DNA of 64,000 nt from a bacterium (GTDB lineage Bacteria > Bacteroidota > Bacteroidia > Bacteroidales > Marinilabiliaceae), in assembly GCA_963620665.1 (NCBI GenBank), contig CAVFBA010000006.1, positions 2,083 to 66,082 of the forward strand, given 5' to 3'. Made by a program: the position numbers and the translations under genes. The notes under the pieces were generated by a model. That model made no database searches. It saw only the letters and a list, made by a program, of their open reading frames with translations, and had not been told where the DNA came from. Shown in pieces: positions 1 to 64,000 of this stretch (positions are counted from its first letter, which is position 1; every line of letters begins with the position of its first letter).

Positions 1-177
1 ATGGCACGACGCATCCTCGGCATAGCACGTCAGAACGTCGTATTCGCCATAGGCATCAAGGTTGTCGTGCTTATCCTCGCCACAATCGGCATAGCGGGCA
101 TGGGTCTGGCGGTGTTCGCCGATGTCGGGGTGACGATCCTCGCCGTGCTCAACGCCATGCGTGCGCTACGTGCCTGA
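1..177 (+). CDS. C-terminal fragment of a heavy-metal-translocating P-type (P1B) ATPase; 5' end lies outside the window
   Basis: Frame 1 is open from base 1 to TGA at 175-177. The translation MARRILGIARQNVVFAIGIKVVVLILATIGIAGMGLAVFADVGVTILAVLNAMRALRA looks like the last two TM helices of CadA/ZntA/CopA-type pumps. A Fur-family gene lies adjacent. Confidence 0.6.
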   Translation: MARRILGIARQNVVFAIGIKVVVLILATIGIAGMGLAVFADVGVTILAVLNAMRALRA

Positions 178-187
178 CGCCGCACGC

Positions 188-613
188 CTAATCGCCCTTG
201 GCCGCGCAATGGGGGCATACTCCTTTCACAATGTAGGTTATGCTCTCCATGGCGTAGCCCTCGGGCAGGCCTATCGCCGGTATCATGACTCCCGGCAGGC
301 ACTCCATACGGTGGCATCGTCGACAGTAGAAGTGAACGTGCAAGTCGTCGTCGTCGCCCTCGCCATGATGCGTGCACATCTCATAGTGAAGCACGCCCGT
401 CTCGTCCTCTATCACGTGCACCAGCCGCCGCTCCCTGAACAACGTCAACGCTCGGAAAATGTTGCTCTTATCGACCGTCTCCAGCATACCCTCAATATCC
501 CCCAGGCACAACGGACGCACAGCCTCGCTCAGCACACGCGCCACCATCAACCTGTTGCCCGTGGGCTTCACCCCGTGCTCCGCAAGAGCCCTCTCAATGT
601 CTATCCGCCCCAT
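188..613 (-). CDS. Fur family metalloregulator (Fur/Zur/PerR type)
   Basis: 141 aa with a winged-helix N-terminus (RLMVARVL...FRALTLFRERRLV), the HHGEGDDDDLHVHFYCRRC metal-site motif and a C-terminal CPHC. Confidence 0.85.
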   Translation of the reverse strand: MGRIDIERALAEHGVKPTGNRLMVARVLSEAVRPLCLGDIEGMLETVDKSNIFRALTLFRERRLVHVIEDETGVLHYEMCTHHGEGDDDDLHVHFYCRRCHRMECLPGVMIPAIGLPEGYAMESITYIVKGVCPHCAAKGD

Positions 614-617
614 GCCT

Positions 618-1520
618 CTACCCTACACTATTGGCATACTCGGTAGGAGTCAAACCCGTCTCCTTCTTGAAAAAACGTACAAAGTGCTGAGGATACTGAA
701 AACCAAGTGAATAGGCCGTACCCTTCACCGTGGCCATCGGCTCCACCATCCGGCTCTTAGCCAAGGTCACAACCTTTCGGTTTATCAACTCCTTAGGGTT
801 CAACCCGGTCTGTCGCTTCACCATGTCACCAAAGTAATTAGCCGTAAGGCATATCTTGTCAGCGAAATACGATACCGTCGGCAACCCCTCACTCTCCGCC
901 CGTCCCTCCTCGAAATAACTGTCAAGCAACGTCTCAAACCTGCTCACCGCATCACGGTTCAACGTCTCACGACTCGCAAACTGACGCTCATAAAACCGCA
1001 AACAATAGTCCAGCAACACCTCGATATGCCCCACGATTATCCTCCGCGACACACGGTCATGCTCCCTCCCGGCCTCCTCCTCTATCGCGCCAAGACACTC
1101 ACGTACCTTAGCTCGCTCCTCCGAGCTCGGATGCAACGCCTCGTTACTCGAATACGCAAAATAACCATACTCCCTCATCCGCCGCTCCAAATCCGTACCA
1201 TGCAGCAAATCAGGGTGAAACAACAAACCCACCATACTCGGCCTGCTACCCGCCACAGGCGACACCGTGACCGTCTGACCAGGCGCGAAACTCGTTATCG
1301 CCCCCTCGTCATAGTCATACTCCGTACGCCCATAGTTTATCACGCAACTCTTCGTGTTCTTCAAAAACAACGCATAAAAACCATAATTCACCCTATACTC
1401 CTCTTCCTTCACACCTCCCATACCATCCGACCGAACCACCGCCACCAACGGGTCATGCGGCTTCCCATATCCCATGAACCCCATGAATTCCTCTATCCGC
1501 TTAGCATCCAACTCTTTCAT
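618..1520 (-). CDS. AraC family transcriptional regulator
   Basis: C-terminal double HTH (LTANYFGDMVKRQTGLNPKELINRKV ... GFQYPQHFVRFFKKETGLTPTEYA). Start moved to ATG at 1520 (MKELDAKRIEE) because a TATCTTTA -7 box sits at 1542-1549 on this strand. The ORF track extends to 1622. Confidence 0.8.
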   Translation of the reverse strand: MKELDAKRIEEFMGFMGYGKPHDPLVAVVRSDGMGGVKEEEYRVNYGFYALFLKNTKSCVINYGRTEYDYDEGAITSFAPGQTVTVSPVAGSRPSMVGLLFHPDLLHGTDLERRMREYGYFAYSSNEALHPSSEERAKVRECLGAIEEEAGREHDRVSRRIIVGHIEVLLDYCLRFYERQFASRETLNRDAVSRFETLLDSYFEEGRAESEGLPTVSYFADKICLTANYFGDMVKRQTGLNPKELINRKVVTLAKSRMVEPMATVKGTAYSLGFQYPQHFVRFFKKETGLTPTEYANSVG

Positions 1521-1541
1521 GTCTTCTTCTATATTTTGCCC

Positions 1542-1549
1542 TAAAGATA
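1542..1549 (-). promoter_or_regulatory. Bacteroidota -7 promoter box (TATCTTTA) for the araC-fur transcript
   Basis: Reverse complement of taaagata, 22 nt upstream of ATG 1520. Near match to the TAnnTTTG consensus. Confidence 0.4.
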
Positions 1550-1632
1550 ACTCTTCTTCCCCAAGTAACACACACACCACAACTCCACTCAAAAAACATC
1601 CCACAAACACCTCACGTCTCACCTTTTATCCC

Positions 1633-1640
1633 TATCTTTG
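1633..1640 (+). promoter_or_regulatory. Bacteroidota -7 promoter box TATCTTTG upstream of nfo
   Basis: Exact TAnnTTTG match, 28 nt upstream of ATG 1668. Confidence 0.5.
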
Positions 1641-1667
1641 AACTACAACCCACAATACGCACCCACC

Positions 1668-2513
1668 ATGAAATATATCGGAGCTCACGTCAGTGCCAAC
1701 GGAGGCGTCCAATACGCCCCCATAAACGCCCACCAAATAAACGCCACCGCCTTCGCTCTATTCACCAAAAACCAACGTCAATGGCTCGCCAAAGACCTCG
1801 ACCAACTCGAAATCCAAGCCTTCAAAGATAACTGCGCGCAATTCCACTTCTCCCCAAAACAAATACTCCCACACGACAGCTACCTAATCAACCTCGGCAA
1901 CCCCGACAACCAAAAACGCCTTCAGTCCGTCAACTCCCTAATCCACGAGTCACGACGTTGCCACGCCCTCGGCCTCTCCATGCTCAACCTCCACCCAGGA
2001 AGCCACCTCAAAGAAACCGACCCGCACAACTGCCTCAACCTCATCGCCGATAGCCTCAACATCGTCCTGAGCGAGACCCAAGACGTCACTCTCGTCATCG
2101 AGAATACCGCCGGGCAAGGCTCCAACATGGGCTTCGCACTCTGGCATATAGCACACATCATCGAGAGGGTCAACGACACCTCACGCATCGGAGTATGTAT
2201 CGACACCTGCCATACCTTCGCCGCCGGCTACAACATAGCGTCACCCGAGGGCTACAACGACTTCTGGTCCGAATTCGACTCCCTCATAGGCCCGCAATAC
2301 CTGCGCGGCATGCACCTCAACGACTCCCTCAAACCACTCGCCTCTAAGGTCGACCGTCACGCACCACTCGGACAAGGCGCCATAGGCATCGACACATTCC
2401 GCCGACTAATACAAGACCCACGAACCGACAATATCCCACTCATCCTCGAAACCCCCGACGACTCCCTATGGCCCACCGAAATAAACACCCTCAAATCCTT
2501 TATCACACAATAA
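1668..2513 (+). CDS. nfo: Deoxyribonuclease IV (endonuclease IV)
   Basis: MKYIGAHVSANGG...LNLHPGSH...VIENTAGQGSN...CIDTCHTFAAGY...HLNDS is the Nfo/AP-endonuclease-2 signature set. The track start at 1638 is TTG and overlaps the promoter box, so ATG 1668 is preferred. Confidence 0.9.
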   Translation: MKYIGAHVSANGGVQYAPINAHQINATAFALFTKNQRQWLAKDLDQLEIQAFKDNCAQFHFSPKQILPHDSYLINLGNPDNQKRLQSVNSLIHESRRCHALGLSMLNLHPGSHLKETDPHNCLNLIADSLNIVLSETQDVTLVIENTAGQGSNMGFALWHIAHIIERVNDTSRIGVCIDTCHTFAAGYNIASPEGYNDFWSEFDSLIGPQYLRGMHLNDSLKPLASKVDRHAPLGQGAIGIDTFRRLIQDPRTDNIPLILETPDDSLWPTEINTLKSFITQ

Positions 2514-2517
2514 CGCC

Positions 2518-3117
2518 ATGCCTCGCGCAATCGCCTTCATAACTCTCCTCATAGCGGCATTCCTCATAGCTGGCCCCGCGGCGCATGCGCAAAACTCCCA
2601 CCGCAACGTTCTCGTCCGTGCACATATCATCAATGGCGACACCATCCCCGACGTCCGCCTCGGCGAAGTCCAAATACTCGCTCGAGCCAAGTTCAAAAAC
2701 GAACGACAGCGACGTAAATGGACCCGCTATGTCTACAACGTCAAAAAAGCTCTACCCTACGCCCGGCTTATAGCACGCGAGCTGACTTTCATCAACGACA
2801 CCCTCGCCATGCTCCAAACCCCCGAAGAACAACAAGCCTTCATCGACCGTAAAGAGGTCTACCTCTTCAAAAAATACGAAACCCGGCTCAAACACCTCAC
2901 CATAAAGCAAGGACGTATCCTAATCAAACTCGTCGACCGAGAGACAGGTCATACCAGCTACGAACTTATCCACACCCTCAAAGGCGGATTCAAAGCCTTC
3001 TGGTGGCAAGGAATAGCCTGCCTCTTCGGCTCTAACCTCAAGACGCACTACGACCCACTGGGCGAAGATAAAAACCTCGAGAACGTCGTCCTCCTAATCG
3101 ACCAAGGCTACTACTAA
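2518..3117 (+). CDS. DUF4294 family secreted protein
   Basis: Signal peptide (AFLIAGPAAHAQ), then KKALPYARLIAREL ... IKQGRILIKLVDRETGHTSYELI ... FKAFWWQ, a pattern I recognise from Bacteroidota DUF4294 proteins. Confidence 0.6.
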   Translation: MPRAIAFITLLIAAFLIAGPAAHAQNSHRNVLVRAHIINGDTIPDVRLGEVQILARAKFKNERQRRKWTRYVYNVKKALPYARLIARELTFINDTLAMLQTPEEQQAFIDRKEVYLFKKYETRLKHLTIKQGRILIKLVDRETGHTSYELIHTLKGGFKAFWWQGIACLFGSNLKTHYDPLGEDKNLENVVLLIDQGYY

Positions 3118-3121
3118 ACAC

Positions 3122-4273
3122 ATGCCCCGCCTGCTCGCTCTCCTAATCCTACTCCTCACACCCCTCCACGCCCGCCCACAGGCGCACGACACCATCCCAC
3201 TGCCCCTACGCGCCGCCAACAACGTAATTCAACTGGCAGAGTCAATCCTCGACGCCCTGACCATCACACAACCCAAACTCTCACTCGCCCTATACCCCGC
3301 CGCCGCCTACTCCTCTCGCTCCGGACTCGCCATAGGCATAATGCCCATGCTCCAGCTACACACAGCTCGCCTGCCACGTCCCATAACCATAACCCCATCC
3401 GCCCTCGTCTCCACTAAACGCATGTTCCAAATACAATGCGACGCCGACCTGTTCTTCAACAATAACCTCGACCTGACCCTCAAATTCGAGTCCCAACACC
3501 AACCCGACGACCTCTACACCATCGGCAACCAATCTCACAAACTCCCCATAGCTCAATACAACTACCGACGACAACTACTCACCGCCGACCTCCTCAAAGG
3601 ACTCAACCGCCTCCCGACTCTCCGACTCGGACTGTCACTCGACTTCGACCACTACTCATTCTCCAACATCTCCCCCACCCCATCCGACTCACTGACCGCC
3701 CTCTCCCTCACCACATCCTCCGCCGGCCATAACCTCGGCATAGGACTAACACTCGGCATAGACTCCCGCGACAATACCCTATCACCCTCACGAGGCTCAT
3801 TCTCCCGTCTGCGGCTCCTCGCCTACTCCCGACTGTCCCACGCCTCACCCTACGCCGCGCTATCCCTCGACGCCCGACGCTACCTCCCCATACGCTCCTC
3901 AGTCCTCGCACTCCATGCCTTCGCCGACATCCGTCTCGGACACGACATACCCTTCCCAAAACTCGCCACATGCGCCGGCACACGACTCGGACGCGCCATA
4001 GGCCACAACCTCAAATACCTCGACCGCGCCGCCTGGCTCGCGCAAGCCGAGTTCCGCGCCCCACTGTTCTGGCGCATAGGCGGCACACTATTCACCGCCG
4101 TAGGCAACGTCACTCACACACCCGCCACCCTCATCTCACACGTCCACCTGATGTGCGGTGCCGGACTGCGCCTCGCCGTGTTCCCAGGCAAAGGCCTCAA
4201 CCTACGACTCGACGCCGGACTGTCTCAACGCGGCGATAAGGCCATATACTTCAATATCCGCGAAGCATTCTAA
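3122..4273 (+). CDS. Omp85/BamA-TamA family outer-membrane beta-barrel protein (surface antigen D15-like)
   Basis: Signal peptide, alternating amphipathic beta-strand pattern, GIDSRDNTLSPSRG and the DARRYLP motif typical of the D15 barrel domain. The C-terminus ends in aromatic F. Confidence 0.55.
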   Translation: MPRLLALLILLLTPLHARPQAHDTIPLPLRAANNVIQLAESILDALTITQPKLSLALYPAAAYSSRSGLAIGIMPMLQLHTARLPRPITITPSALVSTKRMFQIQCDADLFFNNNLDLTLKFESQHQPDDLYTIGNQSHKLPIAQYNYRRQLLTADLLKGLNRLPTLRLGLSLDFDHYSFSNISPTPSDSLTALSLTTSSAGHNLGIGLTLGIDSRDNTLSPSRGSFSRLRLLAYSRLSHASPYAALSLDARRYLPIRSSVLALHAFADIRLGHDIPFPKLATCAGTRLGRAIGHNLKYLDRAAWLAQAEFRAPLFWRIGGTLFTAVGNVTHTPATLISHVHLMCGAGLRLAVFPGKGLNLRLDAGLSQRGDKAIYFNIREAF

Positions 4274-4308
4274 CCTCACCACCACGACAACCCCAAAATG
4301 GGGCTTAT

Positions 4309-4374
4309 ATGCTCCTTGCATGCTCCGTGCATGCTCCAACAATGCTACAACAATGCTCCGCGGATGCTACACAA
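4309..4374 (+). repeat. Six tandem 11-bp units carrying the heptamer ATGCT(C/A)C
   Basis: Units are atgctccttgc, atgctccgtgc, atgctccaaca, atgctacaaca, atgctccgcgg and atgctacacaa. They are contiguous with an exact 11-bp period. Confidence 0.9.
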
Positions 4375-4726
4375 CTCAACACCGCTCTCTCGTAAAACAA
4401 CAAATGGCTCTCCACGACAATGTTTATGCGCCATTTTTACCACCTTTCTCCAAATATCCCCACACAACACCCTCCCACAACGCCCATCATACCGTCGTAT
4501 ACCCCACAATCGCCCTTTTTCGTCTCTCCTTGAAGTATAAACAATTTTCCCGCTATTTTCGGTCAATGTCAATTCTCCAATTCCTTCCTCTTTCCGCAAA
4601 TATCCCACCCCTCTCACCCTCCCGCAACGCCCATTCCACAGTCGTATGAGTGACGAACGCCATCTCCCGCCATCCCTTAGCCTTTCTCCAAACACGTCCC
4701 CTCTTGCGCATTCCGCCTTTAATCCC

Positions 4727-4734
4727 TATCTTTA
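4727..4734 (+). promoter_or_regulatory. -7 promoter box TATCTTTA upstream of sdaA
   Basis: Near-consensus TAnnTTTG, 24 nt upstream of ATG 4758. Confidence 0.4.
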
Positions 4735-4757
4735 TTCCACACTAACCCCCACCCACA

Positions 4758-5969
4758 ATGAAGAGCATCAAAGAGATTTTCCGCATCGGCAATGGCCCCT
4801 CAAGCAGCCACACCATGGGCCCACGTCGTGCCGCCGAGCTGTTCCTCGAACGCCACCCCGACGCCCGGCACTTCGAGGTGACCCTCTACGGCAGCCTCGC
4901 CGCGACAGGACGTGGACACCTCACCGACCGTGCCATCCTCGAAGCCCTGTCGCCCTCCGCCCCCACCAACATCCTATGGCACCCCGAGACAATCCTCCCA
5001 TTCCACACCAACGGCATGGACTTCAAAGCCTTCGACGCCAATAACAACCCAATCGACTCATGGCGTGTATACAGCATCGGGGGCGGAGCTCTTAGCGACG
5101 GCTCCCAATCCGGTGGACAATGGCAACCACCCGACATATACCCTCTGACACACATGACCGACATCATCCACTGGTGCAGCCACACCGGCAAAAGTTACTG
5201 GGAGTACGTCAACGACTACGAAGACCACGACCTCTGGGACTACCTCGCACAAGTATGGGACGCCATGAAATCCGCCATACACAACGGCCTCGAGAACGAG
5301 GGCGTCCTCCCAGGCCCTCTCCACCTCCGACGCAAAGCCTCAGCCTACTTCTACCGCTCCAGCGGCTCCAAACCCAACCTCCAGAGCCGTGGCCTCGTCT
5401 TCGCCTACGCTCTCGCCGTGAGCGAGGAAAACGCCGGCGGTGGGCGCATCGTGACAGCACCAACATGCGGCTCTTGTGGCGTACTGCCCGCCGTACTCTA
5501 CCACCTCGCCAAAACCCGCGACTTCTCCGACACCCGCATCATGCGAGCACTCGCCACCGCCGGACTAATAGGCAACATCGTCAAAGAAAATGCCTCAATA
5601 GCCGGTGCAGAAGTCGGATGCCAAGGCGAAGTGGGCGTAGCTTGCGCAATGGCCGCCGCAGCCGCCAACCAACTATTCGGTGGCAGCACAACGCAAATAG
5701 AATACGCCGCCGAGATGGGTCTCGAACACCACCTCGGCATGACCTGCGACCCCGTTTGCGGCATGGTCCAAATACCCTGCATCGAGCGCAACGCCTACGC
5801 CGCCGCTCGAGCCCTCGACGTCAACCTCTACTCCACATTCTCCGACGGACGGCACCGCATATCCTTCGACCATGTCGTAGAGGTTATGAAACAAACAGGC
5901 CACGACCTGCCCTCACTCTACAAAGAGACAAGCGAAGGAGGGCTCGCCAAAGTCGAAATAGACGACTGA
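4758..5969 (+). CDS. sdaA: L-serine ammonia-lyase (iron-sulfur dependent, single chain)
   Basis: N-terminal [15 protein letters not shown] plus [10 protein letters not shown] and [16 protein letters not shown] cluster-binding motifs. Confidence 0.9.
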
Positions 5970-6061
5970 CACCCCACCACACTCCCCAATATCGCCTATT
6001 TCACACATATTTTCGTTAACTTTGCGTGTTTGGCATCGTCGCCAATCTCTCAACTTAACCA

Positions 6062-7387
6062 ATGGATATCCTCGTCATAATCCTTCAGCTCCTCCTTAGC
6101 CTCTCCATCCTCGTCATAACCCACGAGGCAGGACACTTCACCTTCGCCAAACTCTTCGGCATTAAAGTCGAAAAGTTCTACCTCTTCTTCGACCCCTGGT
6201 TCTCGCTCTTCAAATTCAAAAAAGGCGACACCGAATACGGCATAGGATGGATCCCTCTCGGCGGATACGTCAAGATTGCTGGCATGGTCGACGAATCCAT
6301 GGACACCGACCAACTCAAGCAACCTATGCAGCCATGGGAGTTCCGTGCCAAACCCGCTTGGCAACGACTGCTCGTCATGGTAGGTGGCGTGCTCGTCAAC
6401 CTCATAACAGCGCCCATCATCTTCTGGCTCCTCGCCTACTCCTACGGCGACACCTACCTCCCCCTATCACAAGCACGCTACGGATTCGAATTCGGCGACG
6501 CCCTGAAATCAGTAGGATTCCACGATGGCGACTACATCGTCGGCATAAACGGAAACCCCGCCGAAGCCTACAAAGACGTGGCTAACCCCATTATCTTCGA
6601 CGACACATGCTCCGTCGACATCATCCGCAACGGCAACCCTCTCTCCATAAAACTCCCACACGAGTTCTTCCGCACCATCCTCAAGGGCGACGGCAACCAG
6701 GCGCTGTTCTCGTTCCGCACCCCCGTCGTCGTCGACTCCATTCTCCCTGGCAGCCCCGCCGAGCAATACGGCCTACTACGAGGCGACTCCGTCACACAAG
6801 TGGCCAACATCCCCAACCCCTCATTCTCACGCTTCTTAGCCACCCTCGACAGCCTCAAAGGGCAGCCCACGCAAATAATCGTTGTCCGCGCCACAGGCAA
6901 CACCGACACTCTCAACGTCAACGTCAGCAACTCCGGACGACTCGGTTTCTACGCATACCCTCCCTCACGATGGTTTCAGACCAAGACACGCCACTACTCC
7001 CTCCTCGAAGCCATCCCCGCCGGCATAACCAAGGGCAAAGACCTGCTCGTCAACTACTGCAAGCAGATCCCTATGCTCTTCACCCGCGAAGGAGCTACCA
7101 AAGTAGGCGGTTTCGGCACAATAGCCAAGATGTTCCCAACATCATGGAACTGGCAAGCCTTCTGGTTCAACACAGCTTTCCTCGCCATAATTCTCGCCGT
7201 GATGAACATCCTACCCATTCCAGCTCTCGACGGCGGCCACGTGCTCTTCCTCCTCATAGAGGTCATAACAGGACGAAAGGTCAGCGACAAAGTGCTCGAA
7301 GTGGCGCAAACAATAGGCATGATACTACTCCTCGCTCTCGTGCTATACGCCAACGGGGCGGACATCGTGCGAGCCCTAATCGACTAA
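6062..7387 (+). CDS. rseP: RIP (site-2) zinc metalloprotease RseP
   Basis: HEAGHF zinc motif in TM1, a central PDZ-like region, and the C-terminal NILPIPALDGGH motif. Confidence 0.9.
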   Translation: MDILVIILQLLLSLSILVITHEAGHFTFAKLFGIKVEKFYLFFDPWFSLFKFKKGDTEYGIGWIPLGGYVKIAGMVDESMDTDQLKQPMQPWEFRAKPAWQRLLVMVGGVLVNLITAPIIFWLLAYSYGDTYLPLSQARYGFEFGDALKSVGFHDGDYIVGINGNPAEAYKDVANPIIFDDTCSVDIIRNGNPLSIKLPHEFFRTILKGDGNQALFSFRTPVVVDSILPGSPAEQYGLLRGDSVTQVANIPNPSFSRFLATLDSLKGQPTQIIVVRATGNTDTLNVNVSNSGRLGFYAYPPSRWFQTKTRHYSLLEAIPAGITKGKDLLVNYCKQIPMLFTREGATKVGGFGTIAKMFPTSWNWQAFWFNTAFLAIILAVMNILPIPALDGGHVLFLLIEVITGRKVSDKVLEVAQTIGMILLLALVLYANGADIVRALID

Positions 7388-7397
7388 CAAACCGGCA

Positions 7398-8594: not shown

Positions 8595-8608
8595 CACAAC
8601 AGAGAGAA

Positions 8609-9622: not shown

Positions 9623-9644
9623 ATAACGATAAGCATCAGACAAC

Positions 9645-10691: not shown

Positions 10692-10694
10692 GGG

Positions 10695-11645: not shown

Positions 11646-11653
11646 AGAATATT

Positions 11654-11683: not shown

Positions 11684-11707
11684 GTTGTGTGTTAATATTC
11701 AGGGAGA

Positions 11708-53186: not shown

Positions 53187-53226
53187 CCCATCTCGCTCCA
53201 CAACAAACACCTAACAGTCAAACACC

Positions 53227-53748: not shown

Positions 53749-53915
53749 CATTTTGTCACATTAGATATCACTCATTCTGGGCGACCACTTAGGCCGCCCA
53801 TCTTCGTATGTCAATTATTCCCATTCTCTGACAAATAGGCGCAACGCTACACTTTGGCAACTATTTTGCCCTACCCCACAACGGTTTTCATTGCCCTTTA
53901 ACTCTCTATACGATT

Positions 53916-54512: not shown

Positions 54513-54542
54513 TTCACTCTCAGAAAGGAGATCCGTTGCTTT

Positions 54543-55694: not shown

Positions 55695-55852
55695 CCCCGA
55701 CTGTTAGCTAACCCATATTAGCCGTGTCATTACCCAATGGCGCGGCTTTCTCTTTGTCCACACTCGCCCTTTTCGTCAAATAAAATCCTCACTATTTTCC
55801 TCATTCCCCACATTTTCCCTCTGTTGAAATTTCAATACAGACAAATATAAAT

Positions 55853-55860
55853 TAACTTTG
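55853..55860 (+). promoter_or_regulatory. -7 promoter box TAACTTTG upstream of dapA
   Basis: Exact TAnnTTTG match, about 104 nt upstream of ATG 55964. Confidence 0.4.
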
Positions 55861-55963
55861 CAACCACATTAGCCACGTGCTAATATCACAACACATTCAC
55901 GACAATCAGGCTCAGCCCACGACATTCTCGTTCGCCAAGCCCCCTAAAATACAACTGAGTTAC

Positions 55964-56854
55964 ATGGCTCAATTCAATCTCCAGGGCTCTATTGCCGCCC
56001 TCGTGACGCCATTCAAGAAAGATGGCTCCATAGACTACGAAGCCTACGACCGTCTCCTCGACTTCCACCTTGCCAACGGTACTGCTGGCGTAGTCGTCTG
56101 CGGCACATCGGGCGAGACACCAACTCTCTCCGAAGAGGAGGATGCGCAGATGTTCCGGCACTCCGTCGAGTATATCAACCATCGCATGGTCGTCATCGGA
56201 GGCACGGGTTCCAATAGCACCGAGAGTTGCGTCAAATACACCCGTAACGCGGCCGAGGCAGGTGTCGATGCCGTCCTCACCGTAGGCCCCTACTACAACA
56301 AGCCTACCTCCGCTGGCATGTATCTCCACTTCGCCACAGTCGCCAAGGCCGTAAATATCCCCATAATTCTCTACAACGTCCCCGGGCGCACTGGCTCAGC
56401 CATCAAACCCGACGTTGCCCTCCGCCTGGCACACGACTTCCCCAACATCGTCGGCATTAAGGAGGCCACAGGCAACCTCATGAACATTGCCACACTCATA
56501 GCAGGACGTCCCGAAGGATTCAAGGTTTACAGCGGCGACGATAACATCTCCATGCTCTCTAACCTTCTCGGTGGCGACGGTTGCATATCCGTCCTCGCCA
56601 ATGTAGTCCCTAATGATTTCGCCCAGCTCATGACTCTCTCCATGCAGGGCAACGCCATAGAAGCACGTAAACTCTTCTACAAATATCACCGACTCATGGA
56701 TCTCCTATTCATCGAGTCCAACCCCATCCCCGTCAAGGCAGCCCTCGCCGCCATGGGCATGATGAACGAGACCTACCGCTCTCCACTCTGCCCCATGGAA
56801 CCACAGAACCGCCAAACCCTAATAGACGAGCTGCATAAACTCGCCATAATCTAA
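55964..56854 (+). CDS. dapA: 4-hydroxy-tetrahydrodipicolinate synthase
   Basis: GSIAALVTPF ... VVCGTSGE ... GTGSNST ... YNVPGRTG ... GIKEATGN. ATG 55964 preferred over the track's upstream start at 55877. Confidence 0.9.
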   Translation: MAQFNLQGSIAALVTPFKKDGSIDYEAYDRLLDFHLANGTAGVVVCGTSGETPTLSEEEDAQMFRHSVEYINHRMVVIGGTGSNSTESCVKYTRNAAEAGVDAVLTVGPYYNKPTSAGMYLHFATVAKAVNIPIILYNVPGRTGSAIKPDVALRLAHDFPNIVGIKEATGNLMNIATLIAGRPEGFKVYSGDDNISMLSNLLGGDGCISVLANVVPNDFAQLMTLSMQGNAIEARKLFYKYHRLMDLLFIESNPIPVKAALAAMGMMNETYRSPLCPMEPQNRQTLIDELHKLAII

Positions 56855-56903
56855 CCTGCCAACCACGCCACACGGCAACCCCGTGCCAAGGTGATATTAC
56901 CCG

Positions 56904-56936
56904 TAGAGACGTTGTTTGCGACGTCTCTGCTTTTTT
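56904..56936 (+). terminator. Rho-independent terminator built from a GTAGAGACG...CGTCTCT palindrome
   Basis: agagacgt (56905-56912) pairs with acgtctct (56921-56928), followed by gc plus T6. Confidence 0.75.
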
Positions 56937-57020
56937 GTCCCCTACCCTCCCCTCCTATTTTATACCCATTCTTTCCCTTTTTCTCTCTAATTTTATAATC
57001 AACAAACCAACAACACACCA

Positions 57021-59681
57021 ATGGCAGAATACAACCTATCCGGCCTCACTGAGGAAGAAGTCCTCAGCAGCCGCCAACAGCACGGCACCAACGTCCTCAC
57101 ACCGCCCAAGAAAGAACCACTCTGGAAAAAGTTCCTCGAGAAATTCCAAGACCACCTCATCATCATCCTCCTCGTCGCAGGATGTCTCTCCGTCGGCATA
57201 TCTTTCTACGAGTATTTCGGTCTCGGCAAAGATGCCACAGTCTTCTTTGAGCCAATAGGCATTTTCGTTGCCATACTCCTTGCCACCGGGCTCGCCTTCA
57301 TCTTCGAGCTCAAAGCCGACCGTGAGTTCGCCATCCTCAACCAAGTCAACGACGACGAGCCAGTCGAGGTCATACGCTCCGGCTCGGCGTGCAAAGTGCC
57401 AAAGCGTGACATCGTTGTGGGCGACATCATCATCATTGCCACAGGCGACGAAATCCCAGCCGATGCCGAATTAATCGATGCCACACACCTAAAGGTCGAC
57501 GAGAGCAGCCTAACAGGCGAACCCGTATGCGACAAAACCACAGACAAGGCACAGTTCGACCCACAAGCCACCTTCCCCTCCAACCACGTCATGCGCGGCA
57601 CAAAGGTCATGGAAGGTCACGCCATAGCACGTGTCTTCGCCGTAGGAGACAAGACAGAGAACGGCAAGGTCTTCGAGGCGGCACAAATCGACAACTCCAT
57701 ACGCACCCCACTCAATGAGCAACTCGACGGACTTAGCGACCTCGTAACCAAACTCAGCTACACCATAGCCGCACTCGTCGTAGTAGGCCGCATACTCGTA
57801 TACTTCCTCGGAGACAACTCCCTCGCTTGGGTCGACATCACCGCCTACCTCCTCCAGACCGTCATGATTGCCGTGACACTCATCGTCGTAGCAGTCCCCG
57901 AAGGCCTACCTATGGCTGTGACCCTCGCCCTCGCCTACAGCATGCGCTCCATGCTAAAAACCAACAACCTCGTCCGCAAGATGCACGCCTGCGAGACCAT
58001 GGGAGCCACAACCGTCATCTGCACCGACAAGACCGGCACCCTCACTCAAAACCAAATGCGAGTGAGCCAAGCCGTATTTGACGACCCGCAATCTGAACTC
58101 GTGGCCGAAGCTCTCGCCGTGAACTCTACCGCCGAACTCGACACCTCCAACCCCGACAAACCTACCGTCGTAGGCAACCCCACCGAAGGCGCGCTGCTCC
58201 TCTACCTCTACGACAACAAACGCAACTACCGCGATATACGTGCCTCAATATCCCGTGTCGAGGAACTCCCCTTCTCCACCGAACGCAAATACATGGCCAC
58301 GGAGATTCTCAACCACGACAACCAACACATCCTGCACGTCAAGGGCGCACCCGAGATTGTCCTCTCCCTATGCCAAATCGACTCACAAGAACAGCGCGAC
58401 GCCATATTCTCGCAACTCGCCACATTCCAAAAGCAAGGCATGCGCACCCTCGCCTTCGCCTACAAGAACCTCGAGATTAACGAGAAGGTTATTACCGACG
58501 GACGAATCACTACCAACGACCTCAAATTCCTCGGCATAGTAGCCATCGCCGACCCCGTACGTGCCGACGTGCCAGACGCCATCAAGCAGTGCATCAACGC
58601 CGGCATACAAGTCAAGATGGTCACAGGCGACACCGCCAACACTGCCAAAGAAATAGCACGTCAGATAGGCCTCTGGAACCCACTCACCGACACCGATGCC
58701 AACAACATCATCACCGGTCCCGAACTTGCCGACATGAGCGAAGACAACCTCGACGCCAACGTGGAACACTTCAAGATCATAGCCCGCGCCCGCCCTATGG
58801 ACAAGAAGAAACTCGTCGAGAGCCTGCAACGCAAGAACGAGATAGTGGCTGTCACAGGCGATGGCACAAACGACGCACCCGCACTCAAAGCAGCCCACGT
58901 AGGACTCTCCATGGGCGACGGCACATCCGTAGCTAAAGAGGTGAGCGACATCACCATCATCGACAACTCCTTCAGCAGCATCTGCCGTGCCGTACTCTGG
59001 GGACGTTCCCTCTACCAGAATATCCAACGCTTCCTCCTGTTCCAGCTCACCGTCAACGTCTCCGCTTGCCTCATCGTGCTCGTCGGTGCGTTCATGGGCA
59101 TTCAATCACCGCTCACAGTGACCCAAATGCTCTGGGTGAACCTCATCATGGATACCTTCGGAGCTATGGCTCTCGCCTCACTCCCACCCTCACCCTCCGT
59201 AATGAACGATAAGCCGCGCAACCGCAACGCCTTCATCATCGACCGCCACATGGCAACAGAGATATTCTCCATAGGCGGCATATTCTTCCTCATCATGCTC
59301 GCCATGGTCTACGTCTGCGAACATGCCAACATCACCAGTATGACCGACTTCCTCTCGCCCAACATAGGCGCAGCCAATGGACTGACACCCTACGAGCAGA
59401 CCCTCATCTTCTCCGTATTCGTCATGACGCACTTCTGGTACATGTTCGACACCCGCGGCTATAAGACCAGCCGTAGCGGCCTACTCCTGCGCCACTGCAA
59501 AGGTTTCGGCTTGATCGCACTAATCATCTTCATCGGACAAATCCTCATCGTCGAATGTCTCTACCACTTCTTCGATGTCATCCCAATGAAGATTAGCGAC
59601 TGGATTATCATAACCCTAATCTCCTCCCTCGTCCTCTGGGTGCGCGAGCTGAAAGTGCTCTTCATCAGACACAAGGCATAA
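57021..59681 (+). CDS. Calcium-translocating (P2-type) P-type ATPase
   Basis: TGE-like actuator region, DKTGTLT phosphorylation site, TGDN/VTGDGTNDAPALK hinge, 10 TM topology, 886 aa. Confidence 0.9.
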   Translation: MAEYNLSGLTEEEVLSSRQQHGTNVLTPPKKEPLWKKFLEKFQDHLIIILLVAGCLSVGISFYEYFGLGKDATVFFEPIGIFVAILLATGLAFIFELKADREFAILNQVNDDEPVEVIRSGSACKVPKRDIVVGDIIIIATGDEIPADAELIDATHLKVDESSLTGEPVCDKTTDKAQFDPQATFPSNHVMRGTKVMEGHAIARVFAVGDKTENGKVFEAAQIDNSIRTPLNEQLDGLSDLVTKLSYTIAALVVVGRILVYFLGDNSLAWVDITAYLLQTVMIAVTLIVVAVPEGLPMAVTLALAYSMRSMLKTNNLVRKMHACETMGATTVICTDKTGTLTQNQMRVSQAVFDDPQSELVAEALAVNSTAELDTSNPDKPTVVGNPTEGALLLYLYDNKRNYRDIRASISRVEELPFSTERKYMATEILNHDNQHILHVKGAPEIVLSLCQIDSQEQRDAIFSQLATFQKQGMRTLAFAYKNLEINEKVITDGRITTNDLKFLGIVAIADPVRADVPDAIKQCINAGIQVKMVTGDTANTAKEIARQIGLWNPLTDTDANNIITGPELADMSEDNLDANVEHFKIIARARPMDKKKLVESLQRKNEIVAVTGDGTNDAPALKAAHVGLSMGDGTSVAKEVSDITIIDNSFSSICRAVLWGRSLYQNIQRFLLFQLTVNVSACLIVLVGAFMGIQSPLTVTQMLWVNLIMDTFGAMALASLPPSPSVMNDKPRNRNAFIIDRHMATEIFSIGGIFFLIMLAMVYVCEHANITSMTDFLSPNIGAANGLTPYEQTLIFSVFVMTHFWYMFDTRGYKTSRSGLLLRHCKGFGLIALIIFIGQILIVECLYHFFDVIPMKISDWIIITLISSLVLWVRELKVLFIRHKA

Positions 59682-59779
59682 CACCCGCACCACCCGACAA
59701 GCCCCATAAAAAAGGCTTGCTCCAGTAATTCGTCAAGGCTAATTTCTTTTTTTAAGAATTTATCCATATCTTAGCGCAT

Positions 59780-59828
59780 CGGAAGGTCAGGATGAACACG
59801 CCAGTGTCACCGACCTTCCGATTTTCTA
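59780..59828 (+). terminator. Long hairpin plus U-tract between the ATPase gene and purA (terminator or purA leader element)
   Basis: cggaaggtc (59780-59788) pairs with gaccttccg (59812-59820). An inner gaacac/gtgtc pairing is possible. Followed by attttct. Confidence 0.5.
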
Positions 59829-59859
59829 TGTCTGATTATTTTATAAGTCCCTATCTATA

Positions 59860-61125
59860 ATGAAAGTAGACGTTCTCCTGGGCCTCCAATGGGGCGACGA
59901 GGGCAAGGGTAAGGTCGTTGATGTCCTGACCCCTAACTATGCCGCCGTCACACGTTTCCAAGGTGGCCCTAATGCCGGTCATACGCTCGAGTTTGAAGGC
60001 CAGAAATACGTACTCCGCTCAGTACCCTCAGGTATCTTCCAAGGCGACAAGGTAAACATCATCGGTAACGGCGTAGTACTCGACCCCGCCCTCTTCAAAG
60101 CCGAAATAGAGCAACTCGAAGCCACTGGCCACGACCTCAAGAGCCGACTATTCATATCTCGCAAAGCACACCTCATCCTCCCAACACACCGCCTCCTCGA
60201 CGCCGCATACGAGAGCGCTAAAGGTGCAGGCAAGATAGGTACAACAGGCAAGGGCATCGGCCCCACATATACCGACAAGATCAGCCGCAACGGCCTACGT
60301 GTAGGCGACCTCGAGAATAACTTCGAAGCCAAATACAAAGCCGCAACCGACCGTCACAAAACCATCCTCGGACACTACAACTACCCCACCGATAAACTCG
60401 CCGAAATAGAGAAGGACTGGTTCGCTGGTGTCGAGAAGCTGCGCCAATTCACCTTCATCGACAGCGAATTCTACATCAACGGCCTCCTCGCCGATGGCAA
60501 ACGTGTCCTCGCCGAAGGCGCACAGGGCACAATGCTCGACGTCGACTTCGGCTCATACCCCTTCGTGACATCATCCAACACCGTAGCAGCCGGCTCATGC
60601 ACAGGACTCGGCGTAGCCCCAAGCAAGATAGGCGAAGTATTCGGCATATTCAAAGCCTACTGCACTCGCGTCGGAAGCGGCCCTTTCCCAACAGAACTAT
60701 TCGACAAGACAGGCGAAGAAATACGCAAACTCGGACATGAGTTCGGCGCCGTCACAGGACGCGCACGACGTTGTGGTTGGATCGACCTCGTAGCTCTCCG
60801 CTACGCAGTAATGATCAACGGCGTGACACAGCTCATCATGATGAAAAGCGACATCCTCGACGCCTTCAAAACCATCAAGGCTTGCGTCGCCTATAAGGTC
60901 GGCAACCGTGAGACAGACGAAATGCCCTTCGACATCAACGAGGAAGTAGAGCCTATCTACATGGAGTTCGACGGCTGGAACACTCCCATGGATAAGATGA
61001 CCTCCGAAGACCAGTTCCCCCAAAAGTTCATCGACTACGTCAAGTTCATCGAGAGCTACCTCGGCGTACCAGTCAAGATCGTCTCCGTAGGACCCGACCG
61101 CGACCAAACCATAACCCGCAAATAA
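59860..61125 (+). CDS. purA: Adenylosuccinate synthase
   Basis: QWGDEGKGK P-loop, GGPNAGHT, GTTGKGIGP and GAQG.MLD motifs. Confidence 0.95.
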   Translation: MKVDVLLGLQWGDEGKGKVVDVLTPNYAAVTRFQGGPNAGHTLEFEGQKYVLRSVPSGIFQGDKVNIIGNGVVLDPALFKAEIEQLEATGHDLKSRLFISRKAHLILPTHRLLDAAYESAKGAGKIGTTGKGIGPTYTDKISRNGLRVGDLENNFEAKYKAATDRHKTILGHYNYPTDKLAEIEKDWFAGVEKLRQFTFIDSEFYINGLLADGKRVLAEGAQGTMLDVDFGSYPFVTSSNTVAAGSCTGLGVAPSKIGEVFGIFKAYCTRVGSGPFPTELFDKTGEEIRKLGHEFGAVTGRARRCGWIDLVALRYAVMINGVTQLIMMKSDILDAFKTIKACVAYKVGNRETDEMPFDINEEVEPIYMEFDGWNTPMDKMTSEDQFPQKFIDYVKFIESYLGVPVKIVSVGPDRDQTITRK

Positions 61126-61151
61126 CCCACTGACCATCACACACATACCCA

Positions 61152-61190
61152 CCCCTCCGTGTAGCCACGGCTAACGGAGGGGTTACTTTT
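61152..61190 (+). terminator. Rho-independent terminator after purA
   Basis: cccctccgt (61152-61160) pairs with acggagggg (61174-61182), followed by ttactttt. Confidence 0.65.
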
Positions 61191-61206
61191 AGCCAAGCGT
61201 GACACA

Positions 61207-61782
61207 ATGGACTACAATACAACCCCCTCCAAAAAAGCCCTACGCCACCAAATACGTCTCCTCAAAGACTCACTCACAACCCTGCAACGTGAGCAAGCCG
61301 CCACACGACTCACCTCTCTCGCCCTATCCCACCCAACCATTTCCTCCACTCACACAATAATCTCCTTCTGGCCCATGCCCGACGAGATAAACACCGCTCC
61401 CCTTAACATCTCACTCGCCACACAAGGACACGACCTATACCTCCCCCTAATGGTCGACAACTCCCTACATTTCCACCTCTTCCAAGGTACCGACTCCCTT
61501 ACTCCCGACCCCCTATACGGCATCCTCCAACCTCCCCCCGACTCCCCCACCCTGCCACACGACATCCTCTCCTCTGGCGGCTCAAACACCGTCATAATTA
61601 CCCCAGGCATGGCTTTCACCTCCGACGGACGCCGTCTCGGACGAGGACGAGGTTTCTACGACCGTGCCTTCTCAACCCTGCCCAACGCCATTCGCATCGG
61701 TGTAGGATTCCAATGCCAACTCCTCGACAACCTGCCCACCGAGCCGCACGACGCCACCCTACACCACATCATTCTCGCTTAA
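61207..61782 (+). CDS. 5-formyltetrahydrofolate cyclo-ligase
   Basis: KK.LR..I ... SFWPMPDEINT ... YGILQP ... PGMAFTSDGRRLGRGRGFYDR ... EPHD. Confidence 0.85.
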   Translation: MDYNTTPSKKALRHQIRLLKDSLTTLQREQAATRLTSLALSHPTISSTHTIISFWPMPDEINTAPLNISLATQGHDLYLPLMVDNSLHFHLFQGTDSLTPDPLYGILQPPPDSPTLPHDILSSGGSNTVIITPGMAFTSDGRRLGRGRGFYDRAFSTLPNAIRIGVGFQCQLLDNLPTEPHDATLHHIILA

Positions 61783-61804
61783 CCCTATAACTCCCACCAT
61801 AACA

Positions 61805-63934
61805 ATGCTAAACCCTATATTCCCATCCCTCATAGCCAAACAGCTAAACCTCCGCACTCAACAGGTGCAAAACACCATCAAACTCCTCGACGACGGCGCT
61901 ACCGTACCCTTCATCAGCCGATACCGTAAGGAAGCCACATCCAACCTCGATGAAGTCCAAATAGCCAACATCGCACAAGCCTACGATAAACTCAAGGAAC
62001 TCGAATCTCGCAAAGAGACTATCATCTCTACCATCGACTCCCAAGGAAAACTGACCGACAACCTCCGACAACTTATCACCGACACTTGGGACCCTACCCG
62101 TCTCGAGGACCTATACCAACCCTACAAGCCAAAACGTAAGACACGTGCCGCCAAAGCCCGTGAACTCGGACTCGAACCGCTTGCACAAATACTCCTCAAC
62201 GGAAACTGCCAAGATATCGACCTGACCGCCGAAAAGTTCCTCTCCGACAACGTCAAAACCATCGACGACGCCCTGCAAGGCGCTCGCGATATAATCGCCG
62301 AATACGTGGCCGACCAACCCGAATCACGCGAAACAGCACGCAACATATTCCGCTGTGACGGCATAATCTCTACCAAACTCGTCAAAGGTAAAGAAGCCGA
62401 CGCCGAGAAATACCGCGACTATATAGACCGACACGAAAACCTCTCCAAATGCCCCTCACACCGCGTCCTCGCCATGATGCGCGCAGAAGACGAAGGTGTC
62501 CTCAAACTCTCCGTCGACCCTAAAGACTCCAACGTCATCCTCGACCGACTCGAACGCCGTTTCATCAAAAACCAACGCACAGCACATCATCTACAATCCG
62601 CCATTGCCGACGGCTACAAACGGCTCCTCGCTCCAGCAATGCAGACCGAAATGCAAGCCGAAGCCAAACAACGTGCCGACACAGATGCCATAAATGTCTT
62701 CGAGACTAACCTCCGACAACTCCTCCTCGCCCCACCACTCGGCCGACACCGTGTTCTCGCGCTCGACCCAGGTTTCCGCACCGGCTGCAAAGTGGTATGC
62801 CTCGATGAACAGGGCAATATGCTATGCCACTCCGTCATATTCCCTCACCCACCAGCCAACAAGCCACAAGAAGCACAAGCCGAACTCCAACACCTCATCG
62901 ACAAGTACCACATCGAGGCTGTCGCAATAGGCAACGGCACAGCAAGCCGCGAGACAGAAGCCTTCGTACGCAACTTCGACCCCAACCACCATCTACGCAT
63001 ATTCGTCGTCTCCGAAGACGGCGCCTCTATCTACTCCGCCTCCGCAACAGCACGCGAAGAGTTCCCAAACGAGGACGTCACAGTCCGCGGCGCCGTATCC
63101 ATAGGCCGACGTCTCATGGACCCCCTCGCCGAACTCGTCAAAATCGACCCCAAATCCCTCGGCATAGGCCAATACCAACACGACGTCGACCAAAACCGAC
63201 TCAAGGACTCTCTCGACTCCGTGGTCATAAGCTGCGTCAACCAAGTAGGAGTCGAGGTCAACACCGCAAGCCGACATCTCCTGACCTACGTCTCAGGACT
63301 CGGCCCTCAGCTCGCGCAAAACATCGTCGACTACCGAACCGAACACGGCCCCTTCGCCTCACGAGCCGACCTCAAGAAAGTCCCACGACTCGGCCCTAAA
63401 GCCTACGAGCAATGCGCCGGCTTCCTTCGTATCGCCGGAGCTAAAAACCCCCTCGACACCTCGGCCGTGCACCCCGAACGATACCACATAGTGGCTCAAA
63501 TGGCTCACGACGCCAACTGCTCCGTCCAAGAACTAATCTCCAACCCAACTAAGCGCCAGCAAGTTAAGCTCGAGAACTACGTCACCAACGAGGTCGGTCT
63601 CCCCACCCTACGCGACATAATGGCCGAACTCGAAAAACCTGGCCGAGACCCACGTGAACAACTCCAAGATTTCGCCTTCGACCCCTCCGTACATACCATC
63701 AACGACCTCGCCATCGGCATGCGTCTGCCTGGCATCGTCACCAACATCACCGCCTTCGGGGCTTTCGTCGACCTCGGCGTCAAAACCGACGGACTCGTAC
63801 ACATTAGCCAACTATCCGACCATTTTGTCAAGAATGTATCCGACGTGGTCTCGCTACACCAACAAGTCATAGTCCGAGTTGTCGAAGTCGACCTCGACCG
63901 CAACCGCATCGGACTGAGCATGAAAGGTGAATAA
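61805..63934 (+). CDS. tex: Tex family RNA-binding transcription accessory protein
   Basis: N-terminal TVPFISRYRKE, YqgF/RuvC-like region (ALDPGFRTGCK), HhH motifs and a C-terminal S1 domain (GMRLPGIVTNITAFGAFVDLGVKTDGLVHISQL). Confidence 0.9.
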   Translation: MLNPIFPSLIAKQLNLRTQQVQNTIKLLDDGATVPFISRYRKEATSNLDEVQIANIAQAYDKLKELESRKETIISTIDSQGKLTDNLRQLITDTWDPTRLEDLYQPYKPKRKTRAAKARELGLEPLAQILLNGNCQDIDLTAEKFLSDNVKTIDDALQGARDIIAEYVADQPESRETARNIFRCDGIISTKLVKGKEADAEKYRDYIDRHENLSKCPSHRVLAMMRAEDEGVLKLSVDPKDSNVILDRLERRFIKNQRTAHHLQSAIADGYKRLLAPAMQTEMQAEAKQRADTDAINVFETNLRQLLLAPPLGRHRVLALDPGFRTGCKVVCLDEQGNMLCHSVIFPHPPANKPQEAQAELQHLIDKYHIEAVAIGNGTASRETEAFVRNFDPNHHLRIFVVSEDGASIYSASATAREEFPNEDVTVRGAVSIGRRLMDPLAELVKIDPKSLGIGQYQHDVDQNRLKDSLDSVVISCVNQVGVEVNTASRHLLTYVSGLGPQLAQNIVDYRTEHGPFASRADLKKVPRLGPKAYEQCAGFLRIAGAKNPLDTSAVHPERYHIVAQMAHDANCSVQELISNPTKRQQVKLENYVTNEVGLPTLRDIMAELEKPGRDPREQLQDFAFDPSVHTINDLAIGMRLPGIVTNITAFGAFVDLGVKTDGLVHISQLSDHFVKNVSDVVSLHQQVIVRVVEVDLDRNRIGLSMKGE

Positions 63935-64000
63935 ATCCTAATTCACCCCTCCACACCACAATGGGGGAGTATATGTCGCACCCTCCACTCCCGCAACCGC

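Follow-up and report, generated by a model that had tools for sequence, protein, structure and literature searches.

The locus described here raises the question of why the two strands of a bacterial chromosome differ so strongly in base composition, and why the direction of the difference changes from block to block with no regard to the orientation of the genes. It is a 64,000-nt stretch of contig CAVFBA010000006.1 (the window; positions are those of the window on the + strand unless stated), which belongs to an uncultured gut Bacteroidales species known only from metagenome-assembled genomes (MAGs) such as GCA_963605815.1, GCA_963644115.1, and GCA_963621185.1 and called W below. The block pattern proved to be a map of local mutational polarity and not of assembly joins or present-day inversions, and this polarity pattern is stable over long times and changeable between species.

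Over 18.9-46.3 kb, the + strand consisted of 38.4% C, 14.4% G, 25.8% A, and 21.4% T, giving a GC skew, (G-C)/(G+C), of -0.45. Expressed as (G-C)/N, the value was -0.24, i.e. a G deficit of 24% of all bases, compared with about 0.025 (about 2.5%) as the typical value in bacteria (SkewDB). The strand difference in W and in its sister species S (loci L084 and L099; assemblies ERZ27279217, ERZ27279231, and ERZ27279232; 92% protein identity to W in Tex, 97% in MurA, and about 93% identity in DNA) is about 10 times the typical bacterial value. The GC skew reached -0.66 in single 1-kb windows and -0.73 in 500-bp windows, and the blocks of the window gave values of -0.33 (1-8600), +0.25 (9100-16000), -0.02 (16000-18900), -0.48 (18900-31900), -0.27 (31900-34300), -0.46 (34300-46300), -0.12 (46500-56900), and -0.28 (57000-64000), with the cumulative skew climbing between 9 and 16 kb. 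Among the Tex-protein matches listed, 80 Bacteroidota loci of 4-22 kb (relatives at ≤64% identity) served as the background, and their absolute GC skew had a median of 0.04 and a maximum of 0.21. The initial annotation had described block-wise extreme skew with opposite polarity at ~9100-16000 and sampled values several-fold above those usual in bacteria; both descriptions agree with the windowed minimum of -0.73, the block values of -0.48 to +0.25, and the comparison with the typical value and the background maximum. Its hand counts on 100-nt samples were within 2 bases of our recount (G11 C44 at 19201-19300, G7 C46 at 40001-40100, G42 C13 at 10801-10900, G23 C33 at 51501-51600, and G18 C25 at 33001-33100).

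The called genes and Pfam hits of public contigs, together with our own Pfam scan, were used as the gene set, and values are given in + strand terms. At four-fold degenerate sites, the negative (N) blocks contained about 57-74% C, 17-32% A, 3-15% T, and 2-9% G (about C 62, A 20, T 10, and G 6% over 18.9-46.3 kb). Over most of these blocks, the four-fold GC skew ranged from -0.73 to -0.93 in + strand genes and from -0.77 to -0.95 in - strand genes; it was weaker (-0.40) in the tail at 42-46 kb. In the genes of the block of opposite polarity, hereafter island 1, the skew was +0.38 to +0.82 on either strand at 9.6-15.9 kb and up to +0.88 within 9-16 kb, whereas elsewhere than in the islands the + and - strand genes were alike (-0.84 vs -0.88). 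The four-fold AT skew was positive (+0.2 to +0.8) in most genes of the N domains and negative (-0.3 to -0.6) in island 1. The T depletion of the + strand reported earlier was clear at four-fold sites, but it was weak or absent in the bulk AT skew at 43-46 kb. Intergenic GC skew had the sign of its surroundings, with -0.83 at 25206-25502 and +0.68 at 13500-13845, and codon positions 1+2 and amino-acid usage had moved as expected for each coding strand, with gains of V, G, E, R, and M in genes coded on the G+T-rich strand and of N, I, L, Q, and H in genes coded on the other. Because the four-fold sign is the same in genes of both strands, the intergenic DNA is skewed, and codon positions 1+2 and amino acids have shifted, the cause is mutation, not codon choice. 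The sign followed the DNA strand and not the coding strand in the N domains and in the island alike, as in a replication-type asymmetry, and third-position usage did not differ with gene orientation only, so that the claimed independence from gene strand was borne out. That the bias is concentrated where sites are four-fold degenerate or intergenic, and that the spectrum of single-nucleotide polymorphisms (SNPs) is asymmetric in the matching sense, further indicates a mutational origin. The bias has driven four-fold and intergenic sites near saturation and has reshaped the composition of the proteins.

Because neutral sites are saturated by the bias, the local mutational polarity was readable at sub-kb resolution, using sliding windows of 60 four-fold sites together with runs tests. 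In the first N domain (1-7200), the + strand is C- and A-rich, with a four-fold skew of -0.73 to -0.85 both in the AraC-type gene on the - strand and in nfo to M50 on the + strand. A graded transition to the opposite (P) polarity occupies 7200-11000 within the intact genes SLT-LysM, DUF4837, and PdxA, where the skew passes through -0.8, -0.5, 0, +0.5, and +0.8 (-0.8 below 7.1 kb, about -0.5 at 7.3-8.7 kb, 0 at 9.0 kb, and +0.5 at 9.9-10.8 kb); the same gradient was present in the sister species locus L099. The core of island 1 (11000-15400) comprises a GluQ-RS-like tRNA-synt_1c gene, a 311-aa gene and a HAD gene on the - strand, DUF4290, and MurA. Its skew was +0.8 at 11-11.4, 13.0-13.2, and 15.2 kb, and its four-fold sites (about G 54-70, T 13-25, C 7-20, and A 5-11%) mirror those of the flanks. 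The return to N polarity (15400-18870; MurA 3' end, PD40, an RNase T/ExoX-like gene, and FAA hydrolase) is graded as well (+0.4 at 15.6-16.3 kb, -0.1 at 16.8-17.7 kb, and -0.45 at 18.3-18.7 kb) and closes with an abrupt drop to -0.85 and beyond at 18.87 kb, a step that coincides with the FAA|HisK boundary and is placed identically in W and S. The long N domain that follows (18870-43500; -0.77 to -0.95, + and - strand genes alike) is at compositional equilibrium.

A zone of partial polarity, island 2 (43500-56300), interrupts the N state a second time and includes a 741-aa open reading frame (ORF) and a junction at which gene order differs from that of the next relative O1. Its four-fold skew changes from -0.75 to about -0.4 (Maf), -0.1 (GH25), and +0.2 (3' end of a 394-aa gene, ~52 kb) and is back at -0.9 by 56.3 kb. 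The last N domain (56300-64000; 3' part of DHDPS, Ca-ATPase, PurA, MTHFS, and Tex) has a skew of -0.77 to -0.91, and past the window end the skew is -0.92 in AsmA and weakens over the dcw cluster to -0.51 at MraY. The blocks drawn in the initial annotation were thus real, but their boundaries are mostly smooth gradients of 3-4 kb, with the step at about 18.87 kb as the exception. Likewise, the blocks described as near neutral do have low skew (-0.02 and -0.12), but they are of intermediate polarity with G and C evenly mixed (runs test z about 0) and are not bias-free DNA. Across the intermediate genes G and C were randomly interspersed (runs-test z of -1.3 to +2.3), which ruled out a patchwork of opposite-polarity tracts. 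Within the otherwise graded island 2, one sharp change of polarity was observed: in a single intergenic region of 636 bp (49586-50221), C-rich sequence (...CCCCACCCCACAG...) gives way to G-rich sequence (...GGGGTGTGGGGAGGGTG...GGGGGATGGGGGGCGG...) at about 49.75 kb, directly after a terminator-like hairpin.

The same sequence was recovered repeatedly. Contig CAVCVH010000003.1 of MAG GCA_963605815.1 matched the window at 99.8%, a Logan contig from run SRR13434654 was 100% identical to it over 12.2 kb, and contigs of five further MAGs and three runs carried the same sequence with scattered SNPs and crossed the joins at 8.6-10 kb and 16-19 kb. The loci L089-L094, L001-L003, and L095, which come from different samples and have all the block joins, matched the window at 99.2-100%, and both the sequence and its joins recur in at least six independent assemblies. 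In addition, the ORFs with Pfam domains are intact throughout. Since both joins are spanned by independent MAG and Logan contigs of W and S, the chimeric assembly proposed earlier as one explanation can be set aside.

Species S showed the same skew mosaic as W, gene by gene. The next relative, O1 (L086, L096, and L101-L104; assemblies ERZ15609774 and GCA_963616565.1; Tex 82% and MurA 95% identity; a 764-kb contig is included), has a GC content of about 0.53-0.54, similar to that of W, a bulk skew within about 0.3, and no skew other than the usual preference of coding strands for codons ending in C. One of these loci, L104 (MurA 95%), had been considered as a third lineage with extreme skew and was rejected as O1-like. 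Four-fold sites of W and O1 were at or near saturation in every gene; recent import of the neutral blocks from O1-like relatives was rejected on this ground. Because S shares the mosaic, O1 is normal, and the four-fold sites are saturated, the extreme skew is a derived trait of the W+S clade that arose after the split from O1, whose gene content is largely shared, and none of the blocks is a recent O1-like import. The weak skews of O1 share their sign with the strong skews of W in the segment at 0.6-27.35 kb (segment A), which is consistent with an exaggerated form of ordinary replication skew.

The direction of ongoing mutation was read from strain SNPs of W (sites at 4590-25944 and 51805-64000), which were polarised by the 7%-diverged S. 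The changes on the + strand were T>C (23), G>A (18), C>A (9), C>T (6), A>T (6), G>T (5), A>G (3), and T>G (3), i.e. 41 changes of the types G>A and T>C against 9 of the types C>T and A>G. Read on the - strand, the excess consists of C>T and A>G, and these changes fall on the G+T-rich strand. Such a combination is expected if a strand is deaminated while exposed, or if G.T mispairs made during its synthesis stay uncorrected. The unusually strong deamination- or replication-type bias suspected in the initial annotation is supported by this polarised spectrum, which is blind to orientation and strongest at four-fold and intergenic sites. The 5'-TC context of APOBEC- or DddA-like enzymes was found in only 2 of 18 events and was discarded. 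In 11 of 18 cases the C>T change on the - strand was followed by G (background 0.33), a weak excess in small numbers that hints at a contribution from CpG, perhaps through methyl-cytosine. C>A was commoner than G>T in W. In strains of S (L099, L109, and L110, corresponding to 4.3-26 kb of the window), many transversions were seen, all confined to the G+T-rich strand: they were G<->T within the island, and in the flanks they appeared as C<->A when read on the + strand. The process thus seems always to yield G or T on the G+T-rich strand. In short, one strand keeps gaining G and T via C>T and A>G (plus G<->T in S), its complement becomes C+A-rich, and the orientation of the genes makes no difference. 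Polarisation of W-S differences by O1 was confounded by reversions, and base stability and within-species SNPs were used instead; the pairs L099 and L100, and L084 and L085, differed by one SNP each.

Island 1 was then compared with its flanks. The four-fold composition of its core in S (A4 C4 G74 T18) is an exact mirror of that of the S flanks (A20 C70 G6 T4), and the W core is nearly so. Between W and S, C was stable at four-fold sites of the flanks (8-22% of occurrences differed) and G unstable (37-56% in 10 of 12 genes), whereas in the island G was stable (10-19%) and C unstable (26-65%); the log ratio of base stability correlated with the skew (r = -0.94). An island in decay under flank-type pressure would be expected to lose G as fast as the flanks do, at a rate estimated at 0.2-0.3 per lineage. 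Transitions at sites other than four-fold ones, scored against O1, were 360 of the mirror type and 86 of the flank type in the island (63 and 15 per kb) and 465 of the flank type and 162 of the mirror type in the flanks (53 and 18 per kb). Because the own-type changes per kb are comparable, the mirror polarity of the island is as old as the polarity of the flanks.

The present input in S was estimated from ten S-lineage contigs about 0.5% apart, polarised with W. The island had received 23 mirror-type and 9 flank-type transitions, 21 G<->T and no C<->A changes, and the flanks 21 mirror-type and 13 flank-type transitions, 2 G<->T and 13 C<->A changes. The flank transition counts are those expected for a balanced flux, given mispolarisation at unstable bases, and flank-type input in the S island is excluded. 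The W island, however, had taken 13 flank-type SNPs and no mirror-type SNP, and at the four-fold sites of the island that differ between the species W was the one shifted toward the flank state (95 vs 46). It follows that W and S differ today in the polarity of a collinear stretch of 8 kb. Island 2 was slightly stronger in W than in S (38 vs 22), and the W SNPs there were balanced (4:4). Island 1 has accordingly been in mirror polarity essentially throughout the period of extreme skew; this state persists in S and has recently switched to flank polarity in W, where erosion is starting. The suggestion that blocks stand at different stages of amelioration therefore applies to W, with its 13:0 flank-type SNPs and slight erosion, but not to S, whose island is at mirror equilibrium and takes mirror-type SNPs at 23:9.

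The best reading of these results, for which our confidence is moderate, is an exaggerated replication-linked bias whose polarity varies locally. The asymmetry would be tied to which strand is copied continuously in replication, and its source might be deamination of the exposed lagging-strand template or uncorrected G.T-type misincorporation, perhaps after loss of a repair function; a loss of repair or proofreading as the cause is plausible. Because island 1 is an exact mirror in both composition and spectrum, which a second, added process would not produce, the roles of the two strands appear to be swapped within it. The polarity domains would then correspond to the time-averaged direction of the replication fork, with short zones habitually copied in the opposite sense. 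If the asymmetry follows fork direction, the island would be habitually copied against its surroundings, and local initiation and termination would be required. We hypothesize such an opposite fork direction in the island.

Several points weigh against a replication-linked bias of this kind. A bacterial chromosome with one origin should not switch fork direction twice within 10 kb. Polarity did not switch only at an origin and a terminus, since full switches were found at ~9 and ~17 kb and partial ones at 43-56 kb. The window contains no origin, terminus, or dnaA gene, and no cluster of DnaA boxes at ≤2 mismatches, and the transition from N to P at 7-11 kb lies wholly within genes and is gradual, unlike a defined oriC. 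A replication origin at the island itself was considered and rejected, with no DnaA-box cluster (≤2 mismatches), no tRNA, and no Rfam hit there. The island polarity differs between W and S with no visible structural difference, and no known mechanism predicts this. The SNPs are few (13 to 32 transitions per block), polarisation by the sister species is error-prone at unstable bases with a correction that relies on rough hazard estimates, and part of the SNPs could be recombination imports instead of mutations. Finally, the sequence seen amounts to 76 kb of one contig, which limits extrapolation to the genome.

A bolder form of the replication-linked reading, possible yet held only tentatively, is that the chromosome contains short zones of about 8-12 kb, perhaps one per 30-40 kb, which are replicated against the main fork, so that the skew would act as a natural recorder of fork direction. 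Such zones would be places of local initiation plus termination, possibly formed by priming ahead of forks stalled in head-on gene arrays. They would be long-lived in evolution and yet able to switch off or weaken in one species, as island 1 in W, while persisting in S.

Among the alternatives, the one that survives best, although we consider it unlikely, is recurrent homologous recombination that imports island DNA from an unsampled close relative replicating the region in the opposite direction; recombination with relatives was also on the list of the initial annotation. Imports of this kind would hold the island at mirror composition, and their variable tract ends would give graded edges, in agreement with the collinearity, the kb-scale gradients, and the flank-type input in W; imported alleles could also mimic mirror-type SNPs in S. 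No donor was seen, however: MurA and Tex searches of 5.8 billion proteins found W, S, and then only lineages with normal skew, and every contig with the exact MurA of W had the W context. Moreover, orthologues of mirror and flank polarity share only about 20-30% of their four-fold sites, which should suppress exchange at tract ends, and the divergence of W and S is not lower in the island than in the flanks (four-fold identity of 0.74 vs 0.785). A donor with a large inversion would be of the mirror type region-wide and not over 8 kb, and the problem would be shifted to the donor rather than solved.

Small inversions within a replichore, flipping blocks that are now at differing stages of amelioration, had been proposed at the outset and are improbable here. 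Rearrangements do occur nearby. With segment B defined as 27.5-46.1 kb and segment C as 46.5-64 kb, the order in the 764-kb contig of O1 (ERZ15609774 NODE_3) is C (394aa...Tex), B (ABC2...M23...), and inverted A, and relative to A the segments B and C are each flipped between O1 and W (L086 505-527 kb, L103 538-559 kb). Downstream of Tex, ABC2 is found in O1, and AsmA and the dcw cluster in W and S; the outgroup O2 (Tex 78%) shares purA-MTHFS-Tex only. The weak skews of O1 are consistent with a history in which A retained its orientation relative to replication and B and C switched theirs. The zone of partial polarity overlaps the B|C junction, and the 13:0 input and slight erosion of the W island (95 vs 46 differing four-fold sites) would also fit an inverted block losing its former composition.

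The inversion origin of island 1 is nevertheless largely refuted. The order Omp85, SDH, M50, SLT-LysM, DUF4837, PdxA, tRNA-synt_1c, 311aa(-), HAD(-), DUF4290, MurA, PD40, RNase T, FAA, HisK, DUF5686(-), U32(-) is shared without change by W, S, and four assemblies of the O1 type; L104, a shorter contig and the fifth of this type, agrees with it from PdxA to HisK, and a more distant relative keeps it from DUF4290 to HisK. The island and both its edges thus lie within a region in which neither the order nor the orientation of the genes differs among W, S, and O1, no inverted repeats were found flanking the 9-17 kb island, and the edges are gradients of 3-4 kb with G and C interspersed. The core in S is not eroded (A 4%, G 74%), whereas the flank hazard of G loss given above predicts visible decay, and S strains still gain mirror-type changes. 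An inversion would need to have been long-lived and then to have been exactly re-inverted. Nor do the skew boundaries coincide with breakpoints, as had been suspected: both island edges are collinear, the true A|B junction to O1 at 27.4 kb (27351-27567) shows no skew change, and the B|C junction at 46-50 kb lies inside a graded zone and not at a step.

Transcription- or R-loop-linked exposure of the non-template strand is very unlikely. Strong rightward transcription at 9-19 and 50-55 kb would, on this explanation, override the replication bias; most island genes are on the + strand, a change in expression could account for the difference between W and S with no structural change, and a terminator could underlie the abrupt end at the FAA|HisK boundary. 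The - strand genes in the island (311 aa and HAD) and beside island 2 (S46 and Maf), however, are shifted like their + strand neighbours, genes of both strands are alike elsewhere, and the composition and transversions of the island exactly mirror the flank process, which favours swapped strand roles over a second process. An artefact in the form of a chimeric or strand-collapsed assembly or strand-specific sequencing damage has a negligible probability, for although the source is a short-read MAG and the mosaic resembles joined pieces, the same joins occur in NCBI MAGs, ENA MEGAHIT contigs, and Logan contigs from different samples and in two species 6-7% apart, the domain-bearing ORFs are intact, and the skew is concentrated at synonymous sites.

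The asymmetry was compared with known systems. It resembles the classical bacterial replication skew in that its sign is blind to gene orientation, G and T accumulate on one strand through C>T and A>G, the effect is strongest at synonymous and intergenic sites, and the sign matches the weak skew of the normal relative O1 in segment A. It differs in its magnitude of about 10-fold and a four-fold skew of up to -0.95, in its two changes of sign over 10 kb of collinear DNA, where the transitions are kb-scale gradients and features of an origin or terminus are absent, and in a local polarity that differs between sister species. Islands of mirror polarity in collinear DNA are not predicted by the picture of one origin and two replichores.

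In animal mitochondrial DNA, the heavy strand is G+T-rich and the light strand A+C-rich, C>T and A>G occur on one strand, G makes up a few percent of four-fold sites on the light strand, gradients run along the molecule, and protein composition is affected. The window is alike in the pair of transitions, with C>T and A>G on one strand and depletion of G and T on the other, in its extreme four-fold composition, and in its gradients and protein effects. Unlike mitochondrial DNA, it is part of a bacterial chromosome with housekeeping genes, its four-fold sites are dominated by C and not by A, its gradients build symmetric islands instead of a single ramp from an origin, and there is no evidence of strand-displacement replication.

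The closest bacterial precedent found is the Microgenomates group of Ch65, in which one strand has 29.8% C and 15.0% G (skew -0.33), unrelated to gene distribution; the disparity is common to relatives and absent from a more distant one (PMC7143001). In Ch65, A and T are balanced and the cumulative skew is monotonic across the whole of a small genome, a pattern that the authors attributed to near-unidirectional replication (PMC7143001). Both are bacterial lineages with about twice as much C as G on one strand, independent of genes. The skew described here, however, is -0.45 to -0.5 over 27 kb, A and T are also skewed at four-fold sites, and local polarity reversals occur, so that neither the monotonic cumulative skew nor the A/T parity of Ch65 is found in the window. 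The skew is stronger than that of Ch65, and its only known match is in animal mitochondria. The literature searches gave no description of such a skew in Bacteroidales and no report of one this large in a bacterial chromosome. As a relative with normal skew and the same gene order exists, comparing the repair and replication genes of W and S with those of O1 could reveal what limits strand asymmetry.

With the skew anomalies caused by inversion or horizontal transfer (the 'forensic record' of SkewDB and SkewIT), the window shares local sign reversals inside a replichore. It differs from them in that the main island is collinear and made of core genes such as PdxA and MurA that are collinear in relatives, with graded edges, a mirror equilibrium, and mirror-type mutation ongoing in S. 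A classic foreign insert of the kind recorded in such anomalies is present at 32.3-34.2 kb, where a gene for a GmrSD-type (DUF262/DUF1524) defence nuclease (32351-34165) has a GC content of about 0.45-0.46 and a weaker skew. A sulfatase gene and asnB flank it in W and adjoin each other in O1; foreign composition and absence from relatives thus coincide at this gene, which was probably inserted recently and is still short of the strand bias of its host. A second such insert may be the 741-aa ORF (46523-48745) at the gene-order junction to O1. Its four-fold composition (A17 C50 G5 T29, with lower GC there) is unlike either polarity state, the Pfam scan gave no convincing domain for it, and it may be a later insertion.

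In lineages of this type, phylogenies that presuppose strand symmetry will be misled, as will binning by composition and measures of codon usage. Because the bias strips stop codons from one strand, long shadow ORFs of 599-711 aa lie antisense to real genes, at 25650-27449 (+), 29898-31907 (+), 39680-41623 (+), 46556-48691 (-), and elsewhere. Public gene calls had been misled: an unannotated 218-aa ORF on the + strand was called where L089 and L090 carry the HAD gene, which itself was not called, and contig L110 has several spurious calls.

Two minor features were also observed. A perfect 66-bp tandem repeat of four copies (12692-12955; wider array 12621-13016) lies between the 311-aa and HAD genes of island 1. 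Other MAGs of W are shorter here than the window by 132 bp (two copies), and in S and O1 a spacer of just 52-65 bp separates the two genes; the array is therefore species-specific and variable in copy number. At 36220-36903, a frame for a HigB/RelE-like 'killer protein' upstream of an HTH_3 (HigA-like) gene is interrupted by a stop and a frameshift, reading MKISFADEALAELFETGKTSSRKYKQVCKSKNW* and then ...SFLHYEKLAHDPRSSVRIVNGMVERLLFHETDNGIEVELIEINSTHYGNNK in the other frame. The identical break was found in three MAGs, and the frame is probably a decayed toxin gene.

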